Shown: positions 17,143-26,678, numbered from the stretch's first letter. The stretch is DNA of 64,000 nt from an uncultured Acidimicrobiaceae bacterium (GCA_964584755.1 CAZPAV010000004.1:7386-71385), one strand, 5' to 3'. A program made the numbers and translations. Notes: generated by a model not told the origin, from the letters alone.

Positions 17143-17216
17143 GGGGCTGTAGCTCAGTTCGGCAGAGCACTTGCATGGCATGCAAGGGGTCAGGGGTTCA
17201 AATCCCCTCAGCTCCA
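17143..17216 (+). tRNA. tRNA-Ala (anticodon GGC)
   Basis: Hand-folded cloverleaf: acceptor GGGGCTG/CAGCTCC with G3:U70 Ala identity pair, D-arm GCTC..GAGC, anticodon stem CTTGC/GCAAG with loop ATGGCAT (GGC), T-arm AGGGG-TTCAAAT-CCCCT, discriminator A. Confidence 0.85.
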
Positions 17217-17236
17217 CCCCCAAGAATCCCTTGCGC
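17175..17236. repeat. attL core: 3' half of tRNA-Ala plus 20 bp, duplicated at 23822-23883
   Basis: 62-bp direct repeat ATGGCATGCAAGGGGTCAGGGGTTC[A/G]AATCCCCTCAGCTCCACCCCC[A/G]AGAATCCCTTGCGC, 60/62 identical. Confidence 0.65.
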
Positions 17237-17250
17237 TGCAAGGGATTCTG
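17222..17250 (+). terminator. Perfect 12-bp hairpin immediately 3' of tRNA-Ala (AGAATCCCTTGC-gct-GCAAGGGATTCT); left half lies in the att core
   Basis: Inverted repeat read directly; no U-tract, so terminator function tentative. Confidence 0.35.
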
Positions 17251-17279
17251 GCATTGCCGGTCCAGAACGGAACGACCCC

Positions 17280-17312
17280 GAGTCCGTCCAGAGTCCGCGG
17301 AAAGTCCGCGGG
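17280..17312 (+). repeat. Three tandem GAGTCCG(C/T)-type repeats just inside attL (putative arm-type Int/Xis sites)
   Basis: GAGTCCGTCC AGAGTCCGCGG AAAGTCCGCGGG; the 22-bp block CAGAGTCCGCGGAAAGTCCGCG is shared with 23688-23712 near attR. Confidence 0.4.
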
Positions 17313-17368
17313 AGATCGAGCCAAGGCCATCCCGAAGAGACACCAACACGCCTCGCGGTGGTCAGGAT

Positions 17369-18085
17369 TCAATCTCCAGCGACGAGGATCTCAAGTGCCG
17401 CGCGTCCGTCCTCGGCACCGTCGATGTTCCGCCACGCGCGCGCCTCAGGGTCGAGGAGGTCGGCCTGTCTTTTCAGCCACTTCCGCTCGTTGTCGCTGAG
17501 TTCCTCGGCCATTCCGAATGGATCGCCAACGAGCGTCAGGAGAAAGGCGAGGTCCTCGCGCTGAGCGTCGGGAAGGTCGTCGACTTCGATTGCCCGGGCC
17601 TTGACCAGTATGGCGCCGAGGAGGGTGGGGCGCGGGATGCTTCCGACTTGAGTATCCGTGCGGACTGCGACTTGGACGGATCGCCTCAGAGCCTGGCTCC
17701 CGCCGGGCACCTCCACGGAACGGACTCCTGGTGACACCTCCCGCGGCGCTCGGGTCCCGATGCCGTCCGGAAGGAGAACGTCGATCTTGACGTCGCCGCG
17801 GACGAATCGATGACCAACGCCGTCTGCTGAGACTCCTTCGAGCTGGTATCCCAGCGACTTCAGGCCGCGGACGAATGCCTTCGGGTGGTCGGTGATGGCT
17901 CGAACGTTCACGATGACATCGAGGTCCGTGGATCTTCGGGGTGGCGTGCGCTCGTGCTCGAGGCCGTGTAAGAAGACCATCTGAGCTCCGACCAGTGTCC
18001 AGTCGCTCGGAATCACCGCGGCGACTTCGAGGAGGGCGTCCCACAGTTGGGTGGCGAGTTCATCGTCACGAGGGATGGTGATCAA
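17369..18085 (-). CDS. Nucleotidyltransferase-fold protein (minimal Pol-beta-like NTase; possible AbiEii/DUF1814-like toxin)
   Basis: hG[GA] ... DhD pattern (TLVGAQMVFLHG ... STDLDVIV ... KIDVLL). 238 aa. 22 nt downstream of an HTH protein gene on the same strand. Confidence 0.45.
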   Translation of the reverse strand: MITIPRDDELATQLWDALLEVAAVIPSDWTLVGAQMVFLHGLEHERTPPRRSTDLDVIVNVRAITDHPKAFVRGLKSLGYQLEGVSADGVGHRFVRGDVKIDVLLPDGIGTRAPREVSPGVRSVEVPGGSQALRRSVQVAVRTDTQVGSIPRPTLLGAILVKARAIEVDDLPDAQREDLAFLLTLVGDPFGMAEELSDNERKWLKRQADLLDPEARAWRNIDGAEDGRAALEILVAGD

Positions 18086-18107
18086 GGCTTCTCCTGTTGG
18101 GCTCCAC

Positions 18108-18803
18108 CTACGAAGCTCTCAGAGGGGGTTCGAGGCGTTCCAACAGCTCCCTTGCGGCGCGCCGGCTTCGGGGGTCGTCGGATTCGAGGAGGTCGATGGC
18201 GATGCACGCCCGACCCACGCAGTTCTCCCAGGCAAACGGGAGGTCATCACCGACGACGTGAAGCACGAGATTCGGGCGGTCGCTCGGTTCCAGGTGATAC
18301 CTGGATGCCAGAGCGTCGACTCGGGCAGCAGAGACGTACGCTTCGAGTTCCTCGGCGGCCTGGATGTCGCTGCCGGCTTCGAAAGCCGCGCTGACGCCGG
18401 ACTTCACGACTTCTGGCTCCTGTGCGATTCTCTGCAGCGCCGACGGGTGCGCTCGGAAGCTCAGTCTGTGGGCTCTCGCTCTCAGCCTGGGGGCGAGTGC
18501 GAGAAGGCCGTGCGAGCGTAGCTTGCTTCGAAGCCTCGACAGTGCAGAGGGGCTGACCCAATCCACCGGCAGGCCGTCGGAGAGGCACAGAAGCGCCCAC
18601 GCATTCGCGGCGCTGTAGGGGCGACCGTCGACGATGTCGGCGTCCTGTCTGCGGTCGAGGCTCGCTCGGTGAATCAGCCACCGTCCGGCGATCTTGTCGG
18701 CTTCGAGCTGTTGGGCACGCGCCATCGCCCGTACCCGCGAAGGGTGGAGGCCCAATCGCCTTGCGGCTTCGGGGACTGAGACGAGATCGTTCTGGATGGA
18801 CAT
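18108..18803 (-). CDS. HTH DNA-binding protein (excisionase/MerR-like HTH_17 N-terminus + ~170-aa C-terminal domain); candidate antitoxin/regulator of downstream NTase
   Basis: N-terminus LVSVPEAARRLGLHPSRVRAMARAQQLEADKIAGRWLI matches the excisionase-type HTH pattern; promoter with inverted repeats immediately upstream. Confidence 0.5.
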   Translation of the reverse strand: MSIQNDLVSVPEAARRLGLHPSRVRAMARAQQLEADKIAGRWLIHRASLDRRQDADIVDGRPYSAANAWALLCLSDGLPVDWVSPSALSRLRSKLRSHGLLALAPRLRARAHRLSFRAHPSALQRIAQEPEVVKSGVSAAFEAGSDIQAAEELEAYVSAARVDALASRYHLEPSDRPNLVLHVVGDDLPFAWENCVGRACIAIDLLESDDPRSRRAARELLERLEPPLRAS

Positions 18804-18822
18804 GCAGCAAACCGCCGGGAGG

Positions 18823-18860
18823 TTGACACAACTCTATCACTGGCGAGTTAGTTGTGTCAA
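18823..18860. promoter_or_regulatory. Promoter/operator of the HTH gene: inverted repeat TTGACACAACT (18823-18833) / AGTTGTGTCAA (18850-18860) embedding -35-like TTGACA; direct CAACTCTATC repeats; palindrome CACAATTGTG at 18876-18885
   Basis: Read on both strands. On the minus strand TTGACA-N18-TAGAGT lies ~50 nt upstream of ATG 18803. The region is locally AT-rich. Confidence 0.4.
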
Positions 18861-19134
18861 CTCTATCGTTAGCGACACAATTGTGATAACGGCGTGGAGG
18901 CCGTGCATGGTTTCAAGACAGGGCAGGGTGAACCCGTGGACGTCTGCCGGGAGATGGCCGAGTCCGTCGAGCGCCGCGGCGGAATGGTGCGACACACCCT
19001 GATCTGGGGTGCGTTCGGACGCCGGGGTGTACGGGGTGAATTGGAACCACACGGCTCAACTGTCGGCTCACGCAACCCTCTGCACTATCCCTCAAGTATG
19101 GGGGACAATGCAGCATGGCCAGAGGGCGCCATCC

Positions 19135-20250
19135 TCACCTCTCGATCCCGATGACCGCGGACGCAGCCCGAGTCGGCCGGGGACTCGAGAGAGACCGTCT
19201 CCGCGCCGCTTCGAGGGCGTCGGCGGCCTCCCGGTCGCGGCCTTCGAACAGGTGTCCGTAGACGTCGTAGGTCGTCCGGATCGAGGCGTGGCCGAGCCGC
19301 TGGGAGATGACGTAGGGGTCTTCTCCCTCGGCGATGAGGAGGGCCACGTGGGTGTGGCGGAGGTCGTGTGGGCGCATCGGCTCACCCACGGACTCCCGCA
19401 CGGCCGGGTACCAGACCCGCCGGCGGAAGAGGTGCAGGCGAAGCGGCCCGCCTTCCGGAGCGGTGAAGACGAGTCGGTCCCGACCCGGGTAGGCGGCCAG
19501 GTGGGCGGCGAGCTCGTCGGCGAGGAACGCAGGGAAGGTCACCGTTCGGCGGGAGGCTGCCGTCTTGAGCGGCTCCTCGACTCGGAGCTGTCGGCGCAGC
19601 AGGTCGAGCCGGTCGATGCGCAGGGCGGCGAGCTCGCCGGGACGCAGCCCGGTGTAGGCGCCGGTGAGCACGAACGCCCGGTACCGGGGCTGGATGGTCT
19701 CGGCGAGCTGTTCGACCTCTTCGATGGAGAGGAAGCGTTTCTCGGTCTGTTCGATCTTCGGCAGCTCGATTCTGCGACACGGCGATCGTGCCAGGCGCCC
19801 GTCCTCGACTGCCAGCTCGAGGGCGAGCTGCAACAGCGTGTAGGCGCGCCGGATCGTGGAGGGGGCGTAACCGCCGGCGACGAGGTCGGCTACCCAGGCG
19901 CGCACGTCCCCACGTTCGATCGCAAAGAGGGGCAGATCGCCGAAGGTGGGCAGGATGAGGCTGCGAATGACCGAGCCGTCGCTCGCCCGGGTCGAGGCGG
20001 CAAGGTGGACCCGCCCGGCCTGCACGATGTCGTTCCACTCGCCGAAGCTGATCCGGGCGAGCCGGGGGTCGGTCCACTCGCCCCGCAGCTTGTCGGTTTC
20101 GACGGTGGCGAGGAACGCCTCGGCGTCGACCTTGCGGCGGAAGTTGCGAGCCCGCTCCCGTCCGTTCGGTGTCCGGTAGCGAGCCTGCCAGGTGCCGGCC
20201 TTCGTCTTGCGGATGTGTGCCATGAGAGATCCTTTCGCCGTGCCTGGCAT
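19135..20250 (-). CDS. int: Tyrosine-type site-specific integrase (phage integrase family with N-terminal arm-binding domain)
   Basis: C-terminal catalytic residues R...HDLRHT...Y (MRPHDLRHTHVALLIAEG ... RLGHASIRTTYDVYGHL); N-terminal AP2-like arm-binding segment; inside att-bounded island. Confidence 0.9.
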   Translation of the reverse strand: MPGTAKGSLMAHIRKTKAGTWQARYRTPNGRERARNFRRKVDAEAFLATVETDKLRGEWTDPRLARISFGEWNDIVQAGRVHLAASTRASDGSVIRSLILPTFGDLPLFAIERGDVRAWVADLVAGGYAPSTIRRAYTLLQLALELAVEDGRLARSPCRRIELPKIEQTEKRFLSIEEVEQLAETIQPRYRAFVLTGAYTGLRPGELAALRIDRLDLLRRQLRVEEPLKTAASRRTVTFPAFLADELAAHLAAYPGRDRLVFTAPEGGPLRLHLFRRRVWYPAVRESVGEPMRPHDLRHTHVALLIAEGEDPYVISQRLGHASIRTTYDVYGHLFEGRDREAADALEAARRRSLSSPRPTRAASAVIGIER

Positions 20251-20915: not shown

Positions 20916-21320
20916 GTGGTCGACGTGGCGCCGGTACTGGAGGCGATCGGGATGACGATGGGAGGAGCCGTTGCTGGTCTGATCGTCCACGAGCTTCGGA
21001 TCGTGGTTGGTGACCGCACCGACGGAGGCTCCGCGACATTCCCCGGGGCACGCGAAGAGGCACTCGCGACTCGGGGGTCGCAGATCATCGACTGGGAGCG
21101 AGATCTCGCGGCGACCGAGGAGCGGCTCAGCGAATGGACCGAACGGCTGGGCACCTGGGAGCGAGACTTGCAGGCGAGGGAGCGACGTCTGTCGGCAGCT
21201 TTGGGGCAGGCGGTCGTGGCCAGGGCTGCCGGCAGGAGGATCGGCCGCAACGAGCGCTGCCCTTGCGGCTCGGGTCTCAAGCACAAGCAGTGCCACGGAT
21301 CCGTGGAGGGCCGACGGTAG
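20916..21320 (+). CDS. SEC-C motif (metal-binding) coiled-coil protein; N-terminus possibly disrupted (overlapping out-of-frame ORF 20761..20955)
   Basis: C-terminal RNERCPCGSGLKHKQCHG = SEC-C zinc-binding motif; upstream heptad-like ERDLAATEERLSEWTERLGTWERDLQARERRL. Confidence 0.4.
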   Translation: MVDVAPVLEAIGMTMGGAVAGLIVHELRIVVGDRTDGGSATFPGAREEALATRGSQIIDWERDLAATEERLSEWTERLGTWERDLQARERRLSAALGQAVVARAAGRRIGRNERCPCGSGLKHKQCHGSVEGRR

Positions 21321-21441: not shown

Positions 21442-21975
21442 ATGACGCCGGATCAACCGGGTGTCGTGGCGGGGGGCCTCTACCATCGTGGGATGACCAA
21501 AGGGCTTCGGATCCGTCGGGCGGTGCGAGCCGTCGTGCTCGATCCGGCAGATCGTGTGCTGCTCGTGCGCTTCGAGTTCCCGCATGTCGTCTTGTGGGCT
21601 GCTCCCGGTGGCGGGCTGGAACCTGGTGAGCATCCTCATGATGCGCTGCGCCGGGAACTGATCGAGGAGACCGGGCTCGTCGACCCTGAGATCGGCCCGG
21701 TGATCTGGACGCGGACACACGTGTTCCCGTTCCTCGACGGGAGCTACGACGGTCAGACCGAATCGTTCTACCTCGTACGCACCGAACCGCTCGAACCCCG
21801 CCCGGCGATGTCGTGGGAGGACCTCGGCGCCGAGTACGTCACCGACGTTCGCTGGTGGCCCCAGAGCGAGCTCGAGGAGAGCGGTGCGATGTTCGCTCCC
21901 CGACGCATGCCCGAGCTGATCGGTCGTCTGGTCGCCGAGGGGCCGCCGCCGGCACCGATCGACGCCGGGGTGTAG
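21442..21975 (+). CDS. NUDIX hydrolase
   Basis: Nudix box GGGLEPGEHPHDALRRELIEETG (Gx5Ex7REUxEExGU). Confidence 0.8.
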   Translation: MTPDQPGVVAGGLYHRGMTKGLRIRRAVRAVVLDPADRVLLVRFEFPHVVLWAAPGGGLEPGEHPHDALRRELIEETGLVDPEIGPVIWTRTHVFPFLDGSYDGQTESFYLVRTEPLEPRPAMSWEDLGAEYVTDVRWWPQSELEESGAMFAPRRMPELIGRLVAEGPPPAPIDAGV

Positions 21976-22073: not shown

Positions 22074-22970
22074 CTATCCGGACCGCCACTGCCAGGTGTC
22101 GGGATCCCATGTTGCATCGGGGACTTGCTCACCGATGAGCGGGTTCCAGAAGGAGCGGAGCGCCTCTCCGGCTTGGGGGAGCGTGACCCATGGGATGTCG
22201 TAGATGGCCACGAACTGGGCCCACCGGTCCGCCCAGCGGTTTGGTGGGTTGGGGATCTGCGGAGGCCACGGGGTGTTTCGGGTCTCGAACGTCGCTTCGC
22301 AGGTTGCGACGACGGCAGAGCTCGGTGAGATGGGGAGGCGTTCGGCGATGACGAGCATGTCGTAGAGGTCTCGGGGCCGGCTGGATCCGTTGCCGTAGGA
22401 GCGTGCGTAGGCGTGGAGCTTCTCGGCGAGTTGTTGTTCGACGGGGATGGCGGGGACGATAGGGGCAGGGAGGCCGGCGAAGTCGAGGACGTCACGGAGG
22501 GGAATCTCGGTGAGGGGTCGCCGGTCGGTGGGCATCAAGTTGACGTCGAGGTTGACACGTTCGAACTCTCTGCCGGCGAGCATCGCGAGAACGGGGAACC
22601 GGAGAGCACCGGCCGCAGTCTCGCCCTGGAGGGGCCGGGCTCGGCCGATCTGGAAGGCGAACCCGTCATCCACGTCGAGCAGCGCCGCCTGATCGAGGGC
22701 GGCTTCGAGTTCGTCGCGGGTGGCTCGCCAGTTGGCGTCGGCGTCGGAGGTCGCTCGGGCCCGGTCGCCGAGACGTGCGAGGAGGGCCAACCCTCCCTTG
22801 AGCGCCCAGGTCCCCGGCGGAGCCGTGTGTTGGAGCCGCGCGAGGAGTCGCTGATGGGCGACTTCCTTGCGAAGCCGGTCGAGGGGACGGCCCGTCTGGC
22901 GGGCACGGGTGAGGAGACGTCGTTCGAGCGCCACACGGAAGGCATGGGGACTGTCATAGGGGCCGATCAT
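22074..22970 (-). CDS. AbiEii-like nucleotidyltransferase toxin (DUF1814 family, type IV TA/abortive infection)
   Basis: N-terminal WALKGGLALLARLG...TSDADANW (hGG + DxD NTase motifs as in the AbiEii LKGGTAL signature); 298 aa; ATGA-coupled to upstream AbiEi-like gene. Confidence 0.65.
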   Translation of the reverse strand: MIGPYDSPHAFRVALERRLLTRARQTGRPLDRLRKEVAHQRLLARLQHTAPPGTWALKGGLALLARLGDRARATSDADANWRATRDELEAALDQAALLDVDDGFAFQIGRARPLQGETAAGALRFPVLAMLAGREFERVNLDVNLMPTDRRPLTEIPLRDVLDFAGLPAPIVPAIPVEQQLAEKLHAYARSYGNGSSRPRDLYDMLVIAERLPISPSSAVVATCEATFETRNTPWPPQIPNPPNRWADRWAQFVAIYDIPWVTLPQAGEALRSFWNPLIGEQVPDATWDPDTWQWRSG

Positions 22971-23542
22971 GCCGAGAGGGATCGGCCGAAGACCTCGGCG
23001 AGGTCGGGCTGCTGCTCGACGACCTGGCGAAGCCGGCCGGCCCGGATGAGGCCACGCTCGATGGCTTCTTCTGCAGCGGCGGCCGCGACCGCCGGATCCG
23101 CGGCGACGTCGAGGATGGTTCGCATCGGTGTGGTGACGGGAATCCCCTCGCGGACCGTGACGTCATCCGCCGGGAGCGTCGCCCGATGGATGAGCACACC
23201 GGGGCGCCTCCCCCGGAAGCGACGCGCAACGGTGATGTGGATGACCGCCGGCATGGCGTCGGCCAGGCCGTAGATCGCCAATGCCGTGTCGTGGGAGGCC
23301 ACCGCACCGTCACCGACCCACAGGATGGTGGCCATCACGTCTTCGAACGGGTGGCTCGGATAGTTGAGCAGGCGGTACACGCCCCGGTCGACACGCTCCA
23401 GGTTGCCCGAGCGGACGTGATGGGACAGGTAGCGACGGTCGACCCCCAGCTCTTCCGCCTGGCTCGTGCTGAAGTAGCCGAGCTGGGCGTCGGCGAGGGA
23501 ATACAGACGGTCGAGCACCCACTTGGCTGGCATGAATGTCAT
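22967..23542 (-). CDS. AbiEi-like antitoxin/transcriptional autoregulator (wHTH N-terminus)
   Basis: YFSTSQAEELGVDRRYLSHHVRSGNLERVDRGVYRL wHTH then SHDTALAIYGL block typical of AbiEi family; stop overlaps AbiEii start (ATGA); palindromic operator at its start. Confidence 0.6.
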   Translation of the reverse strand: MTFMPAKWVLDRLYSLADAQLGYFSTSQAEELGVDRRYLSHHVRSGNLERVDRGVYRLLNYPSHPFEDVMATILWVGDGAVASHDTALAIYGLADAMPAVIHITVARRFRGRRPGVLIHRATLPADDVTVREGIPVTTPMRTILDVAADPAVAAAAAEEAIERGLIRAGRLRQVVEQQPDLAEVFGRSLSA

Positions 23543-23557
23543 AGTAACTATGACATT
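23535..23557. promoter_or_regulatory. 23-bp perfect inverted repeat AATGTCATAGT-a-ACTATGACATT overlapping the abiEi start codon(s): candidate autoregulatory operator
   Basis: Palindrome read directly; AT-rich island in GC-rich context; AbiEi proteins are known to bind inverted repeats in their own promoters. Confidence 0.5.
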
Positions 23558-23670
23558 GGCGCCACGCCAGCGTTTTCCGATCGACTCCGGGTCGCCTGAT
23601 CTTCGAGGCTCACCTGCGTTCCCGCCAGCAGGGACCTCGAACGGCGAGACCCGGCGTCGAACCTCCACTG

Positions 23671-23721
23671 GGGTCCGCGCAGAGTCCGCCGAGAGTCCGC
23701 GGAAAGTCCGCGAGAGGTCCG
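23671..23721 (+). repeat. Five tandem ~10-bp (A/G)GAGTCCGCG repeats just inside attR (putative arm-type sites)
   Basis: GGGTCCGCGC AGAGTCCGCC GAGAGTCCGCGG AAAGTCCGCG AGAGGTCCG; same orientation and sequence family as 17280-17312. Confidence 0.4.
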
Positions 23722-23821
23722 AAAACGACCGGAAATGACCAGAGGCGTTGAGAGGTGAAATGCCAATAGCCACAAGGGTTTTCGGCCGTTTCGCCAGGTG
23801 GCGAAACGTGCCCGTTCTTCG

Positions 23822-23883
<62 letters not shown>

Positions 23884-23936
23884 CGGGGCTGTCGCATGGA
23901 TGGTCGCCGCAGCGGGGTTGCCGGCGTGGTGTCGGT

Positions 23937-24326
23937 TCAGGTGGTGGCGAGCCGGTGCCGGTGGATCTCGAGCAGGTCGTGGACGGTGCACACGAGTCGT
24001 CCTTCGCTGGTGGTGGCAGCGAGTCCTCGCCGTGAGAACCGTCGGAACCTGAGGTTGGCCTTGATGTTCCCGAAGAGCGTCTCGACGGTGGACCTCGGCT
24101 TGGCGTAGGCGGCGGCTCCGCCGTCGGTGGCGAGGCGCTCGACGAAGGCGTGACGGACCTGGGCTGGATCGGGCAAGCCGCGGCGGTGATGCTCGAGCAG
24201 TGTGCCCACGGTGGTGGTCGAGACGCCCAGGTGGGTCGTCGCGGTCTGTGCGGTGATGTCGCCTCGGTCGGGGCATTCGATGACGTCCCGGCGCCGGCCG
24301 AGACGGGGACCGCTCCTGTCGGTCAC
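23937..24326 (-). pseudogene. IS5/IS4-like DDE transposase fragment (C-terminal part only)
   Basis: C-terminal block VETLFGNIKANLRFRRFSRRGL...LVCTVHDLLEI resembles the DDE_Tnp_1 C-terminus; no N-terminal catalytic region; located just outside attR. Confidence 0.55.
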
Positions 24327-24898
24327 TCGACTTCGAGCTTCACCAGAGCGAAGGATGCTCCGTCAGTTTCCTCACTCCTCCTGACCTCTACGAAGCCGCC
24401 GGTCAGATAGAGGTCGAGGGGGCCGGAGGGGTTGTTGGCCGAATCGACCCGCGCGTACGCCCAGAGGCCCCTGAGGCCGCGCGCTCGTACGTCGTCCACC
24501 ACCGCACTCAACAGCCGTGTGCCAATCCCTGCGCCTCGGAACGGAACCGGCACGTGGAGGCATGTCACCAACACCTCGTCGTCGGGGGGTTTCTCCATGC
24601 CATAGTCGTACCGGTAGAACCCGGGAAAGCGTTGAGCCGGTGCGTACTGGACGTAGCCGGCCGGTGTCCCGTCCACCAGGGCCAGAAACCCACACGGTCC
24701 CCACTCTGCCCAGGCCCTCTCGAACCAGGCCCGTTTGTGCTCTGCCCATGCTGTCGAGAACGGCTCTCGTCCCGGTGTGGCGAAGAGGTCCGGCTCCTCC
24801 CAGTACAGACAGAGTCCGCACGTGGCTGCGACGGCGTGAGGAAGGTTGGAAGCGTCGATCCTCACGATCTCGGGTGCCACTGGATCCGGCATCTGCAT
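24323..24898 (-). CDS. GNAT family N-acetyltransferase
   Basis: Acetyl-CoA binding motif region VPFRGAGIGTRLLSAVVDDVRARG (Q/RxxGxG/A); 191 aa. Confidence 0.7.
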   Translation of the reverse strand: MQMPDPVAPEIVRIDASNLPHAVAATCGLCLYWEEPDLFATPGREPFSTAWAEHKRAWFERAWAEWGPCGFLALVDGTPAGYVQYAPAQRFPGFYRYDYGMEKPPDDEVLVTCLHVPVPFRGAGIGTRLLSAVVDDVRARGLRGLWAYARVDSANNPSGPLDLYLTGGFVEVRRSEETDGASFALVKLEVE

Positions 24899-25244
24899 CC
24901 AGTCTATGCCCGGGTGTCTCCCTCATCTCGACCACGACAGCGATGATCCACCACGGCCGTGCCGGCTGTCGGCTCCAGCGAAGCATGGCCTCGTGAAGTC
25001 TCCGCATTCGATGGTCGCGGACGCCCGCCGATGATGTGTCCCCTCCGCCCTTCCTCCGACATCGCCAGCCTGTGCCGGTTGCTTCGTCGTCGTCGAGCCG
25101 GCGGCGCCTACCCATGCCGGAGCCATCCAGGGGGTCGAGCAGCCACCCCCCGTTCGGACTCTCTCGCGGGGGCGGTAGCCGGCCACCACGGCCCGCCGTC
25201 ACCCACAGAGGGACCAGGCAGCGAGTGCCGAGGGCCTCGCATCC

Positions 25245-25577
25245 GTGTCAGAATCGCCGCCGATGGAAGCGATCGGTGACTCTCGAAGGCCCGTGTCGAA
25301 CATGTCGGTGGGAGACGTCGGCTGGTTCCTCGACGTCGTGGACCGTCTCGGTATCGAGGTGTGGCTCGACGGTGGTTGGGGGGTCGGCGCGGTCTTGGGG
25401 AAGCAGACAGGTCGACACGGCGCTCTCGACATCGTGGTCGAGGACAGGAACCTCGTGGCGCTTCGCGAGGCGCTTGCTGCCGCCGGCTTCACGGGCTCCC
25501 GACCCGACGATCGAACGGACTGGAACTTCGTCGTTGCCGATCCGGAGGGCCGTCGCATGACGTCCATGTCATCGTGA
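25245..25577 (+). CDS. ANT(2'')-like nucleotidyltransferase, probably C-terminally truncated (possible pseudogene)
   Basis: WLDGGWGVGAVLGKQTGRHGALDIVVEDRN resembles the aminoglycoside 2''-adenylyltransferase family N-terminus (WIGGGWAIDARLGRVTRKHDDIDL); only 110 aa vs ~175 expected. Confidence 0.4.
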   Translation: MSESPPMEAIGDSRRPVSNMSVGDVGWFLDVVDRLGIEVWLDGGWGVGAVLGKQTGRHGALDIVVEDRNLVALREALAAAGFTGSRPDDRTDWNFVVADPEGRRMTSMSS

Positions 25578-25718
25578 TCGACGAGCTCTGACAGGGACTC
25601 GTTCGGCGCCGTCCCAGGCCACTGTCGTAGGTGGTACGGATCGGCACGGATGCGCCGTCTCCCGCGATCGGCAGCTTCGCAGCATGGGCCCGTGCGAGAC
25701 TCCGATCACCGATCTTGG

Positions 25719-26678
25719 CTAGACGGCGATCACGACATTGCCGATCTTCCGGCCCGTCTCGACGTAGCGGTATGCCTCGACGATCCGGTCCAGGGGGTAG
25801 CGCCGGTCGACCACCGGCTTGAACTCTCCCGATGCGATGAGCCCGGCGAGGTAGGCGCTCGCCTCGGGGTCACGACGAGGCAGGGGGAACATGACCCTCC
25901 GGCCGCCGAGTAGGGGTGTGATGAGCGCCAGGATCGGGCCGTGCCAGAAGAGCCCGACGTCCGACGAGATGTAGATCCCGCGGGGTCTCAGCAGCCGCCG
26001 GCAGCGACGGAAGGAGCTCTTGCCGACCGCGTCGAGAACCAGGTCGTACCGCTGCTCGTCCTGGGTGAAGTCCGTGGTCTCGTAGTCGACCACCCTGTCC
26101 GCTCCCAGGTCCTCGACGAGGGTCAGGTGGGCGGTGCCACAGACCGCGGTCACCTTGGCGCCGAGGCTCTTGGCGATCTGGACCGCCGCCGAGCCGATCG
26201 CTCCGGTCGCCCCGTAGATGAGGACGTCGTGACCGCCACGGACTCCTGCGCTCCGCAGCATGCCCAGCGCGTAGTGGGAGCCCTCGGTGCTGGGCGCAGC
26301 CTCCGCGAAGGTCGAGTCGGTGGGGATGGGAACGACGAAGTGTTCGGCCTGGATGGTCATGTACTCGGCGTGCGCTCCGAAGGTGCCCTCGCAGTAGCCG
26401 CACACCCGGTCGCCCACGCCGTGGGAGGTGACGTCCGTGCCGACCGCCACGACCTCTCCGGCGAACTCGGTTCCGAGGACGGCGACCTTCGGCCGGCGGA
26501 GGCCGCTGAAGAACCTGATGAGCCACGGGGTCCCTCCCCGGTAGCCGCAGTCCGTCCGATTGACGGTGGTGGCGCGAACCCGGATCAACAGCTCGCCCCT
26601 TCCCGGAGTCGGAGTGTCGACCTCCTCGAGTCGGACGACGTCCGGCGGACCGTACCTGGTGCGAACCGCTGCTCTCAT
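25719..26678 (-). CDS. Zinc-binding/MDR-family NAD(P)H:quinone oxidoreductase
   Basis: MRAAVRTRYGPPDVVRLEEV... GroES-like N-terminus; Rossmann GATGAIGSAAVQIAK; internal ATG chosen within ORF 25719..27176. Confidence 0.75.
   Translation of the reverse strand: MRAAVRTRYGPPDVVRLEEVDTPTPGRGELLIRVRATTVNRTDCGYRGGTPWLIRFFSGLRRPKVAVLGTEFAGEVVAVGTDVTSHGVGDRVCGYCEGTFGAHAEYMTIQAEHFVVPIPTDSTFAEAAPSTEGSHYALGMLRSAGVRGGHDVLIYGATGAIGSAAVQIAKSLGAKVTAVCGTAHLTLVEDLGADRVVDYETTDFTQDEQRYDLVLDAVGKSSFRRCRRLLRPRGIYISSDVGLFWHGPILALITPLLGGRRVMFPLPRRDPEASAYLAGLIASGEFKPVVDRRYPLDRIVEAYRYVETGRKIGNVVIAV

Follow-up and report, generated by a model that had tools for sequence, protein, structure and literature searches.

The DNA analyzed here, called the window in the following, is a stretch of 64,000 nucleotides (nt) from an uncultured Acidimicrobiaceae bacterium (GCA_964584755.1 CAZPAV010000004.1:7386-71385). 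It contains a pair of genes, A and B, at the left end of a small tRNA-associated island (Table 1). Gene A encodes a putative antitoxin and autorepressor; gene B, which starts 22 nt downstream of gene A, encodes a putative toxin. The open reading frame (ORF) calls placed both genes, and the gap between them, exactly where an initial annotation of the sequence had located them. That annotation had described a helix-turn-helix (HTH) gene followed by a nucleotidyltransferase (NTase) gene, either a distant AbiE variant or an undescribed system. The start of gene B is shared by its homologues, which have the N-terminus MI.IP at the same position.

Table 1. Features of the gene A-gene B locus and of the surrounding island. 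Positions are those of the window; aa, amino acids.
Feature	Position	Strand	Description
Gene A, putative antitoxin/autorepressor	18108..18803	-	ORF, 231 aa, ATG start
Gene A, excisionase/MerR-type winged HTH	18651..18782	-	aa 8-51; Pfam HTH_17, E 1.1e-8
Gene A, alpha/beta C-terminal domain	18129..18626	-	aa ~60-225; remotely AbiEi_2 (PF09952/COG4861)-like
Gene B, putative toxin	17369..18085	-	ORF, 238 aa, TTG start; MenT1-like/DUF1814-superfamily compact NTase
Shine-Dalgarno-like AGGAGA	18090..18095	-	4 nt 5' of the gene B TTG; read off the sequence
Gene B, NTase catalytic core	17774..18001	-	aa 29-104; W29-T-L-V-G33, R50-x-S52-x-D54-x-D56, D102
Gene B, motif III lysine and motif IV-like acidic residue	17552..17602	-	aa 162-178; K162 (LLGAILVKARA), D178; from conservation
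Putative A-B operon promoter	18831..18860	-	-35 TTGACA 18860-18855; 18-nt spacer; TG-extended -10 TAGAGT 18836-18831
Putative operator	18822..18861	.	12-bp perfect inverted repeat GTTGACACAACT / AGTTGTGTCAAC; 16-nt spacer; over -35 and -10
Direct repeat CAACTCTATC, two copies	18829-18838, 18858-18867	+	2 found, 0.01 expected
Palindrome CACAATTGTG, probable third half-site ATTGTGTC	18876..18885	.	0.00 expected
Tyrosine integrase	19135..20250	-	PF00589, E 5.6e-19; immediately 5' of gene A, same direction
tRNA-Ala(GGC)	17143-17218		
attL	17175..17236	+	62-bp direct repeat; 3' part of tRNA-Ala(GGC) plus 18 bp
attR	23822..23883	+	62-bp copy of attL, 2 mismatches; tRNA-like fragment in Rfam
SEC-C-motif protein	20916-21320	+	
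NUDIX hydrolase	21442-21975	+	
Canonical AbiEii/AbiEi pair	22074-23773		Adjoins attR

The gene B protein has no match in Pfam, NCBIfam, PADLOC or PHROGs. A word-indexed search for relatives gave 333 matches of conserved length, and a profile search with a threshold of E≤1e-3 extended the family to no fewer than 2108 cluster representatives (clusters at 50% identity). The AlphaFold2 model of the protein (predicted local distance difference test score, pLDDT, 92.9; predicted template modelling score 0.91) was compared with the PDB using Foldseek, and the top match was MenT1 (E 1.3e-5). The model shows a Pol-beta-type NTase fold, closest to MenT1; this is the three-dimensional fold of the MenT/AbiEii toxins. 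MenT1 was also the only meaningful PDB sequence match of a hidden Markov model (HMM) of the gene B family, albeit with an E value of 0.013, and this match covers the active-site segment. The HMMER alignment places R50, S52, D54 and D56 of gene B on R37, T39, D41 and D43 of MenT1. Two relatives of gene B carry the label 'predicted nucleotidyltransferase' at the Joint Genome Institute (JGI). Five others (P0309, P0319, P0349, P0360 and P0366) have N-terminal extensions of 100-160 aa without a Pfam match.

The residues expected in an active site are highly conserved among 245 relatives of gene B: G33 in 100%, R50 in 93%, D54 and D56 in 99% each, D102 in 99% (the remainder being E), K162 in 99.6%, A165 in 95% and D178 in 95% (with E in the other 5%). 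Position 52 is S or T in 242 of these sequences (99%). This conservation pattern is the one predicted for an active Pol-beta-type NTase, with the catalytic set G33, D54, D56, D102 and K162 intact. The strings in which the initial annotation had recognized an NTase (TLVGAQMVFLHG, STDLDVIV and KIDVLL) indeed carry the family-invariant G33, D54, D56 and D102. Motifs I-III of gene B fit the DUF1814 motifs as defined by Dy et al. 2014. Motif I (hG[G/S] plus DhD) reads L31-V-G33-A/G34 ... D54-L-D56, with either A or G at position 34. Motif II (h[D/E]h, the third carboxylate) reads I-D102-V-L. The conserved lysine of motif III is found in LLGAILV-K162-A-R-A; of the COG4849 signature KLxAaxxR only K..A is matched, and the aromatic residue and the distal Arg are absent. 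From motif order and spacing, in a region with no significant alignment, we infer that K162 and D178 are equivalent to K137 and D152 of MenT1. Known toxins of this type have a Ser/Thr phospho-acceptor (MenT1 T39, MenT3 S78, AbiEii T65), and gene B S52 aligns with T39, the site of auto-phosphorylation in MenT1 (PMC11375011).

Relatives of gene B provide a weak link to the curated DUF1814 family. A Tsukamurella plasmid encodes a homologue (32% identical, E 9e-17) with the annotation AbiEii/AbiGii-family protein; its PF08843 score of 22.7 bits narrowly exceeds the gathering cut-off of 22.5. Two further relatives have whole-domain matches to PF08843 below the threshold (E 0.01-0.02). Gene B itself does not reach the threshold of the curated DUF1814 model. 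Among 36 aligned relatives the AbiEii matches were single and sub-threshold, one to PF08843 (E 0.046) and one to PADLOC AbiEii (E 0.042).

Gene A has 148 homologues of conserved length, and its AlphaFold2 model has a pLDDT of 89. The excisionase/MerR-type HTH that had been claimed for this protein was found at its N-terminus, where the best structural matches (aa 1-55) are Pukovnik Xis and BldC. An N-terminal winged HTH is also characteristic of AbiEi-type antitoxins, but that of gene A is of the HTH_17/excisionase type. The C-terminal domain stays below the threshold of the AbiEi-family model in gene A. In 11 of 40 relatives this domain is matched by AbiEi_2/PF09952, once above the gathering cut-off, and 5 of the 40 also match AbiEi_4 (best E 1.6e-6). 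Two other assignments were discarded. A match of gene A to PADLOC 'mad1' (E 1.9e-4) spans only the generic HTH and indicates no membership. The segment LRSKLRSH has the Rx5H spacing of HEPN motifs, a likeness already called probably coincidental in the initial annotation; we reject it because the histidine is not conserved in the homologues, which read e.g. LRRHLSDRG or LRRRLREDG, and there is no match to a HEPN family.

We then asked how strictly the two genes occur together, using 80 loci from one-genome-per-species contigs and 4 loci obtained by protein look-ups. In every one of the 84 loci (84/84) the gene B homologue is preceded directly, on the same strand, by a gene A homologue, and in all of the 80 the gap is estimated at ≤30 nt. 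Gene A shares this position, immediately 5' of a DUF1814-type NTase, with the AbiEi-type antitoxins. The survey of co-occurrence had been proposed together with the initial annotation, for which a lack of conserved pairing would have been damaging; the pairing is strict. One metagenomic protein, P0371 (489 aa), even combines a gene A-like and a gene B-like half in a single ORF, with 36% identity to each; the gene A-like half has HTH_17 and a sub-threshold AbiEi_2 match. This protein could be a genuine fusion of antitoxin and toxin; the alternative is a frameshift artefact. In the contig L088 from a metagenome, gene A appeared to be broken into 3 short gene calls, which might have left an orphan toxin. 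Only 2 positions of this contig differ from the window, both outside the gene, and gene A is intact there; the fragmentation is an artefact of gene calling.

The metagenome-assembled genomes (MAGs) with the pair are labeled Acidimicrobiia or other Actinomycetota, Acidobacteriota, Chloroflexota, Dormibacterota, Deltaproteobacteria and Spirochaetota; the nearest relatives are Acidimicrobiia MAGs, which points to a high-GC actinobacterium as the host. The two-gene unit is also present on plasmids of Rhodococcus, Arthrobacter, Bifidobacterium and Tsukamurella, with the annotations 'helix-turn-helix protein' and 'hypothetical protein'. An all-against-all clustering of the flanking ORFs of the 80 loci revealed no third conserved gene beside the pair. 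The third large cluster consisted of spurious ORFs in overlapping frames, and the next one of integrases from 10 loci. In one related locus the pair is located amid ParE, BrnT, HigB and other toxin-antitoxin (TA) genes.

A tRNA gene occurs within 6 kb of the pair in 20/60 loci, in about 11 of them immediately adjacent, and a tyrosine recombinase within 6 kb in 13/80. The pair appears to be carried repeatedly at the margins of tRNA-integrated islands. Individual loci illustrate the arrangement. In L016, L029, L033, L039, L012, L043, L044 and L058 the pair has a tRNA gene (Ala-TGC, Gly, Val, Lys/His or Arg) no more than ~100-300 bp away, on either side, and the order tRNA-Arg(CCT), integrase, gene A, gene B is found in L013, L065, L069, L071 and L072. 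The closest genome relative, locus L005 of an Acidimicrobiia MAG (78% identity), adjoins a tRNA-Ala-GGC; no integrase was detected within 6 kb upstream, and its gene B homologue (L005:5977-6714) holds an in-frame stop. The gene A homologue of another locus is split (L018:5211-6005). Both lesions reflect either decaying copies or assembly errors.

The region upstream of gene A has sequence features that fit an autoregulated promoter. A scan of positions 17200-19200 found a single sigma-70-like site (10/12 matches, 0.2 expected), and a putative operator covers both of its elements. At this place the initial annotation had described an 11-bp inverted repeat with a -35-like TTGACA. The repeat is present but slightly longer, with arms of 12 nt (18822-18833 and 18850-18861) that are 100% complementary. 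In the 64-kb window the arm sequence occurs at these two sites only, even if 2 mismatches are allowed. Direct repeats and a perfect palindrome had also been listed, and both exist. The two copies of CAACTCTATC read GATAGAGTTG on the minus strand and lengthen each half-site. The palindrome CACAATTGTG is imperfect in L005 (CATAATTGTG), where ATTGTGTC is kept; it is ATTGTGTC and not the palindrome that is conserved, and this element is probably a third operator half-site. The locally AT-rich character of the region is evident from a GC content of 42% at 18822-18890 versus 67% in the island and 72-73% in the flanks.

The same design recurs in the homologues. The consensus of the 45 nt 5' of their start codon is ATTGCATAATACTTCCGATATCGGTAGTATTTTGTTATG, with a -35-like TTGCAT/TTGACA in the left arm of the palindrome and a -10-like TAGTAT/TATAGT in the right arm. 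Because the ATG follows ~6 nt after the -10, we infer that the transcript of these homologues is leaderless. Imperfect inverted repeats with a score of ≥9 were found in 30/76 upstream regions versus 7/228 shuffles. The window forms a subclass with L005, L006 and L040, whose members share the half-site GTTGACACAACTAT and have a short leader and a spacer of 10-18 nt. When these four upstream regions are aligned, the two arms are the invariant or most conserved blocks, and in L040 G>A and C>T changes occur symmetrically in both arms, so that the symmetry is kept. As judged from the sequence, the operator fits the expectation for a dimeric repressor site that overlaps a promoter. For AbiEi, repression via inverted repeats in the promoter has been shown experimentally (PMC3985639). 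The family-wide conservation of the putative operator supports the earlier suggestion of a palindromic, autoregulated promoter. A role of the inverted repeat as terminator of the integrase gene was dismissed; no T-run follows the repeat and the terminator scan lists none here.

The setting of gene A also raises the question of whether it is the excisionase (recombination directionality factor) of the island, with gene B as an accessory and a role of both in integration or excision. Gene A is located directly downstream of the integrase, no separate Xis was recognized on the island, and an integrase is directly upstream and co-directional in 8/80 related loci. However, no tyrosine recombinase occurs within 6 kb of the pair in 67/80 related loci, and the plasmid copies adjoin partition genes, with no integrase in their 3-kb flanks. 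Xis of Pukovnik (4j2n) and BldC (6amk) are stand-alone proteins of ~50-70 aa, which bind direct repeats or att arms. Gene A, in contrast, is not a stand-alone Xis; its 231 aa include an additional conserved AbiEi_2-like domain of 170 aa. The palindrome that it putatively binds overlaps the promoter of its own gene, at a distance of 1.6 kb from attL and outside both att sites, and the operator sequence is found nowhere else in the window. An excisionase is the least probable of the explanations considered here, although the excisionase-like HTH next to an integrase makes a second role of gene A in excision a minor possibility.

We assign the pair, with a probability of about 0.7, to the bicistronic TA-type modules of the AbiE/MenAT (DUF1814 NTase) superfamily, as a divergent branch with a COG4861-type antitoxin and a COG4849-type toxin. 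On this assignment both genes are remote members of AbiE/MenAT that escape the standard annotation models, and not a new system. Because the window proteins fail the thresholds of the curated models, their membership is based on structure and transitive homology. Dy et al. 2014 predicted that COG4861-COG4849 pairs are AbiE-like (PMC3985639). PF09952 corresponds to COG4861, and PF08843 comprises COG2253 and COG4849 (PMC7251935). The pair is connected to these families by the PF09952 matches of gene A relatives, the PF08843 match of a gene B relative and the best structural match, MenT1, which belongs to COG4849. The COG4861-COG4849 pairs (AbiEi_2 PF09952 plus AbiEii PF08843) are most likely the family-level home of gene A and gene B. 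Of the two possibilities in the initial annotation, the AbiEi_2 and AbiEii links of the relatives and the prediction of Dy et al. thus favor the distant AbiE variant over the undescribed system. There is no homology to a housekeeping enzyme, which would have spoken against either.

Several observations weigh against this assignment. The window proteins match none of Pfam AbiEii, Pfam AbiEi_2, NCBIfam and PADLOC AbiE, and the sequence links to known families are borderline (E 0.013; 22.7 versus 22.5 bits). An hhalign comparison of the gene B family with a 35-sequence alignment of COG2253 AbiEii proteins gave a probability of 0.14 and an E value of 0.42, with motifs I and II placed correctly. 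Because this result is not significant, the link between gene B and DUF1814 was drawn from the structure, the MenT1 HMM match and the transitive matches. In gene B 19 residues separate G-A from D54, more than the x=15 of AbiEii (PMC3985639), and only half of the +DxxD of motif IV is present: when aligned by eye, R176-E-D178-L-A-F181 has Phe/Leu instead of the second Asp. The family profiles of gene A and gene B do not pick up the AbiEi/AbiEii of the island, and hhalign comparisons with these single sequences gave no signal. This agrees with the initial description of a pair that parallels AbiEi/AbiEii in architecture and is clearly different in sequence. Finally, toxicity, tRNA targeting, phosphorylation and repression are attributed to the pair by analogy.

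Some of these points could be explained by a new two-gene system unrelated to AbiE/MenAT, in which the likeness merely reflects an ancient shared Pol-beta fold and a generic HTH. Such a system would account for the fact that no curated model sees either window protein beyond the HTH and that the comparison with the AbiEii (COG2253) family failed to reach significance. It is difficult to reconcile with the transitive above-threshold links, which tie both genes to AbiEi_2 and AbiEii, and with the DUF1814-specific R-x-S/T-x-D-x-D and motif III lysine that the proteins have in common. The operon architecture is also the same, with a winged HTH plus C-terminal-domain antitoxin 5' of the NTase and inverted repeats over the promoter (PMC3985639). 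We consider an unrelated system very unlikely.

A further objection to a TA module comes from MenA2-MenT2 (Rv0837c-Rv0836c), which has a COG4861-type antitoxin and is the one such pair tested so far: it was non-toxic in M. smegmatis and E. coli (PMC7450476). By the same token, gene B might be a non-toxic NTase under the control of an HTH repressor, modifying a small molecule such as an antibiotic (cf. ANT(2'')-Ia, LnuA) or another substrate; NTases acting on small molecules have the same fold. Against this, the best structural match and the only sequence matches of gene B are MenT toxins, and the R-x-S/T-x-D-x-D signature, including the phospho-acceptor position of MenT1, is 99% conserved. Furthermore, the second domain of gene A is AbiEi_2-like and not a ligand-sensing regulator domain. 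The short gap (estimated at ≤30 nt), the single fusion protein and the sites of the pair, which include plasmids, TA-rich loci and the edges of islands, are what one usually sees in TA modules. A non-toxic modifying enzyme is unlikely.

The AbiE/MenAT assignment can be examined by a comparison with the best-known members. MenT1 (Rv0078A; MenA1-MenT1 of M. tuberculosis; PDB 8AN4/8AN5; COG4849 branch) is a compact NTase like gene B, and the two have R-x-T/S-x-D-x-D with its Ser/Thr phospho-acceptor position and the motif III lysine in common. They are 22% identical; gene B is longer (238 versus 196 aa), with 6 residues inserted between the G motif and DxD and an extra conserved helical region at the C-terminus (D188-P189, L204). 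The antitoxins also differ: MenA1 has 68 aa, no HTH and no autoregulation (PMC7450476, PMC11375011), whereas gene A has 231 aa, an HTH and a palindrome in its promoter. The pair has the architecture of AbiEi/AbiEii of Lactococcus lactis and Streptococcus agalactiae (COG5340-COG2253), in which an antitoxin with an N-terminal winged HTH and a neutralizing C-terminal domain is encoded 5' of a DUF1814-type NTase and inverted repeats overlap the promoter (PMC3985639). Here the differences are the HTH_17/excisionase-family HTH of gene A, unlike the AbiEi_4 of AbiEi, and a gene B that is 60 aa shorter than AbiEii and lacks the second Asp of motif IV. The pair also departs from the canonical AbiE of the island in its G-to-DxD spacing, in the family-specific motif VPGGSQALRR and in the C-terminal helical extension. 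Compared by description, MenA2 is much larger than its toxin, while gene A and gene B are similar in size.

MenT/AbiEii toxins alter tRNA acceptor ends, and they are neutralized by auto-phosphorylation that the antitoxin induces (PMC3985639, PMC7450476, PMC11375011, bioRxiv 10.64898/2026.01.19.700257). By analogy with AbiEi/AbiEii and MenA/MenT, dimers of gene A would occupy the inverted repeat over the -35 and -10 elements and thereby repress the operon. Free gene B, whose target is probably the 3' ends of tRNAs, would add nucleotides to the acceptor end; this would block aminoacylation, stop translation and arrest growth. The C-terminal domain of gene A may neutralize gene B by complex formation and/or by inducing auto-phosphorylation of Ser52, two residues N-terminal to the first catalytic Asp (type VII mechanism). 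The module could in this way stabilize the 6.7-kb tRNA-Ala island and/or serve abortive infection.

If this is confirmed, a widespread and so far unannotated branch will join the AbiE/MenAT superfamily of NTase TA modules. The branch occurs mainly in Acidimicrobiia and also in Acidobacteriota, Chloroflexota, Dormibacterota and on actinobacterial plasmids, and would be overlooked by finders of defence systems and TA modules. The COG4861/COG4849-type branch is essentially without experimental characterization, the tested MenA2-MenT2 being non-toxic. The near-universal Ser/Thr at the phospho-acceptor position of MenT1 makes it possible to test in a distant clade whether antitoxin-induced auto-phosphorylation is, as proposed, a general mechanism, and the compact promoter-operator palindrome offers a clean model of autoregulation. 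The finding alters no concept.

A more far-reaching view is that the family forms a large clade of its own among the MenT-like NTase modules, unseen by Pfam, NCBIfam and PADLOC, with a substrate or trigger unlike those of the characterized MenT/AbiEii toxins, and specialized as stabilizer or defence cargo at tRNA-island edges. The clade would be distinguished by the excisionase-type HTH of the antitoxin, a palindromic promoter-operator that abuts the start codon in most members, and the family-specific motif VPGGSQALRR together with the C-terminal helical extension. We regard this view as doubtful.

The island itself is enclosed by attL and attR, measures 6.7 kb and has a lower GC content than its flanks. 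Gene B ends 133 bp inside attL; this distance and the 62-bp repeat agree with the position next to attL given in the initial annotation. The order of genes is gene B, gene A, integrase, SEC-C-motif protein, NUDIX hydrolase and the canonical AbiEii/AbiEi. The island is a minimal one with two unrelated NTase TA-type modules, one just inside each att site. An Rfam scan of the island found only the tRNA and the tRNA fragment at attR. Several JGI metagenomes contain an identical island.

Tandem copies of (A/G)AGTCCGCG, spaced by 11 nt and in the same orientation, occur just inside both island ends (17281-17311 and 23673-23713). Four of the five AGTCCGCG on the plus strand of the window are located here, at 17292, 17303, 23694 and 23705, and an exact repeat of 21 nt is common to 17290-17310 and 23692-23712. 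These copies are candidate arm-type binding sites of the integrase.

The ORF of the canonical AbiEi (22967-23773, 268 aa) is probably over-extended. Its Pfam domains begin at aa 88, and the JGI calls on an identical sequence have 188-191 aa, which places the start near 23542. Beyond attR the GC content remains at 0.66-0.68 for ~2.5 kb (23884-26500). This segment contains a fragment of a DDE transposase (23937-24326, minus strand) and a GNAT acetyltransferase (24323-24898, minus strand), and the JGI calls on identical DNA include a nearby gene of an aminoglycoside-resistance family (PF10706). The segment may be a second, decayed mobile remnant beside the island.

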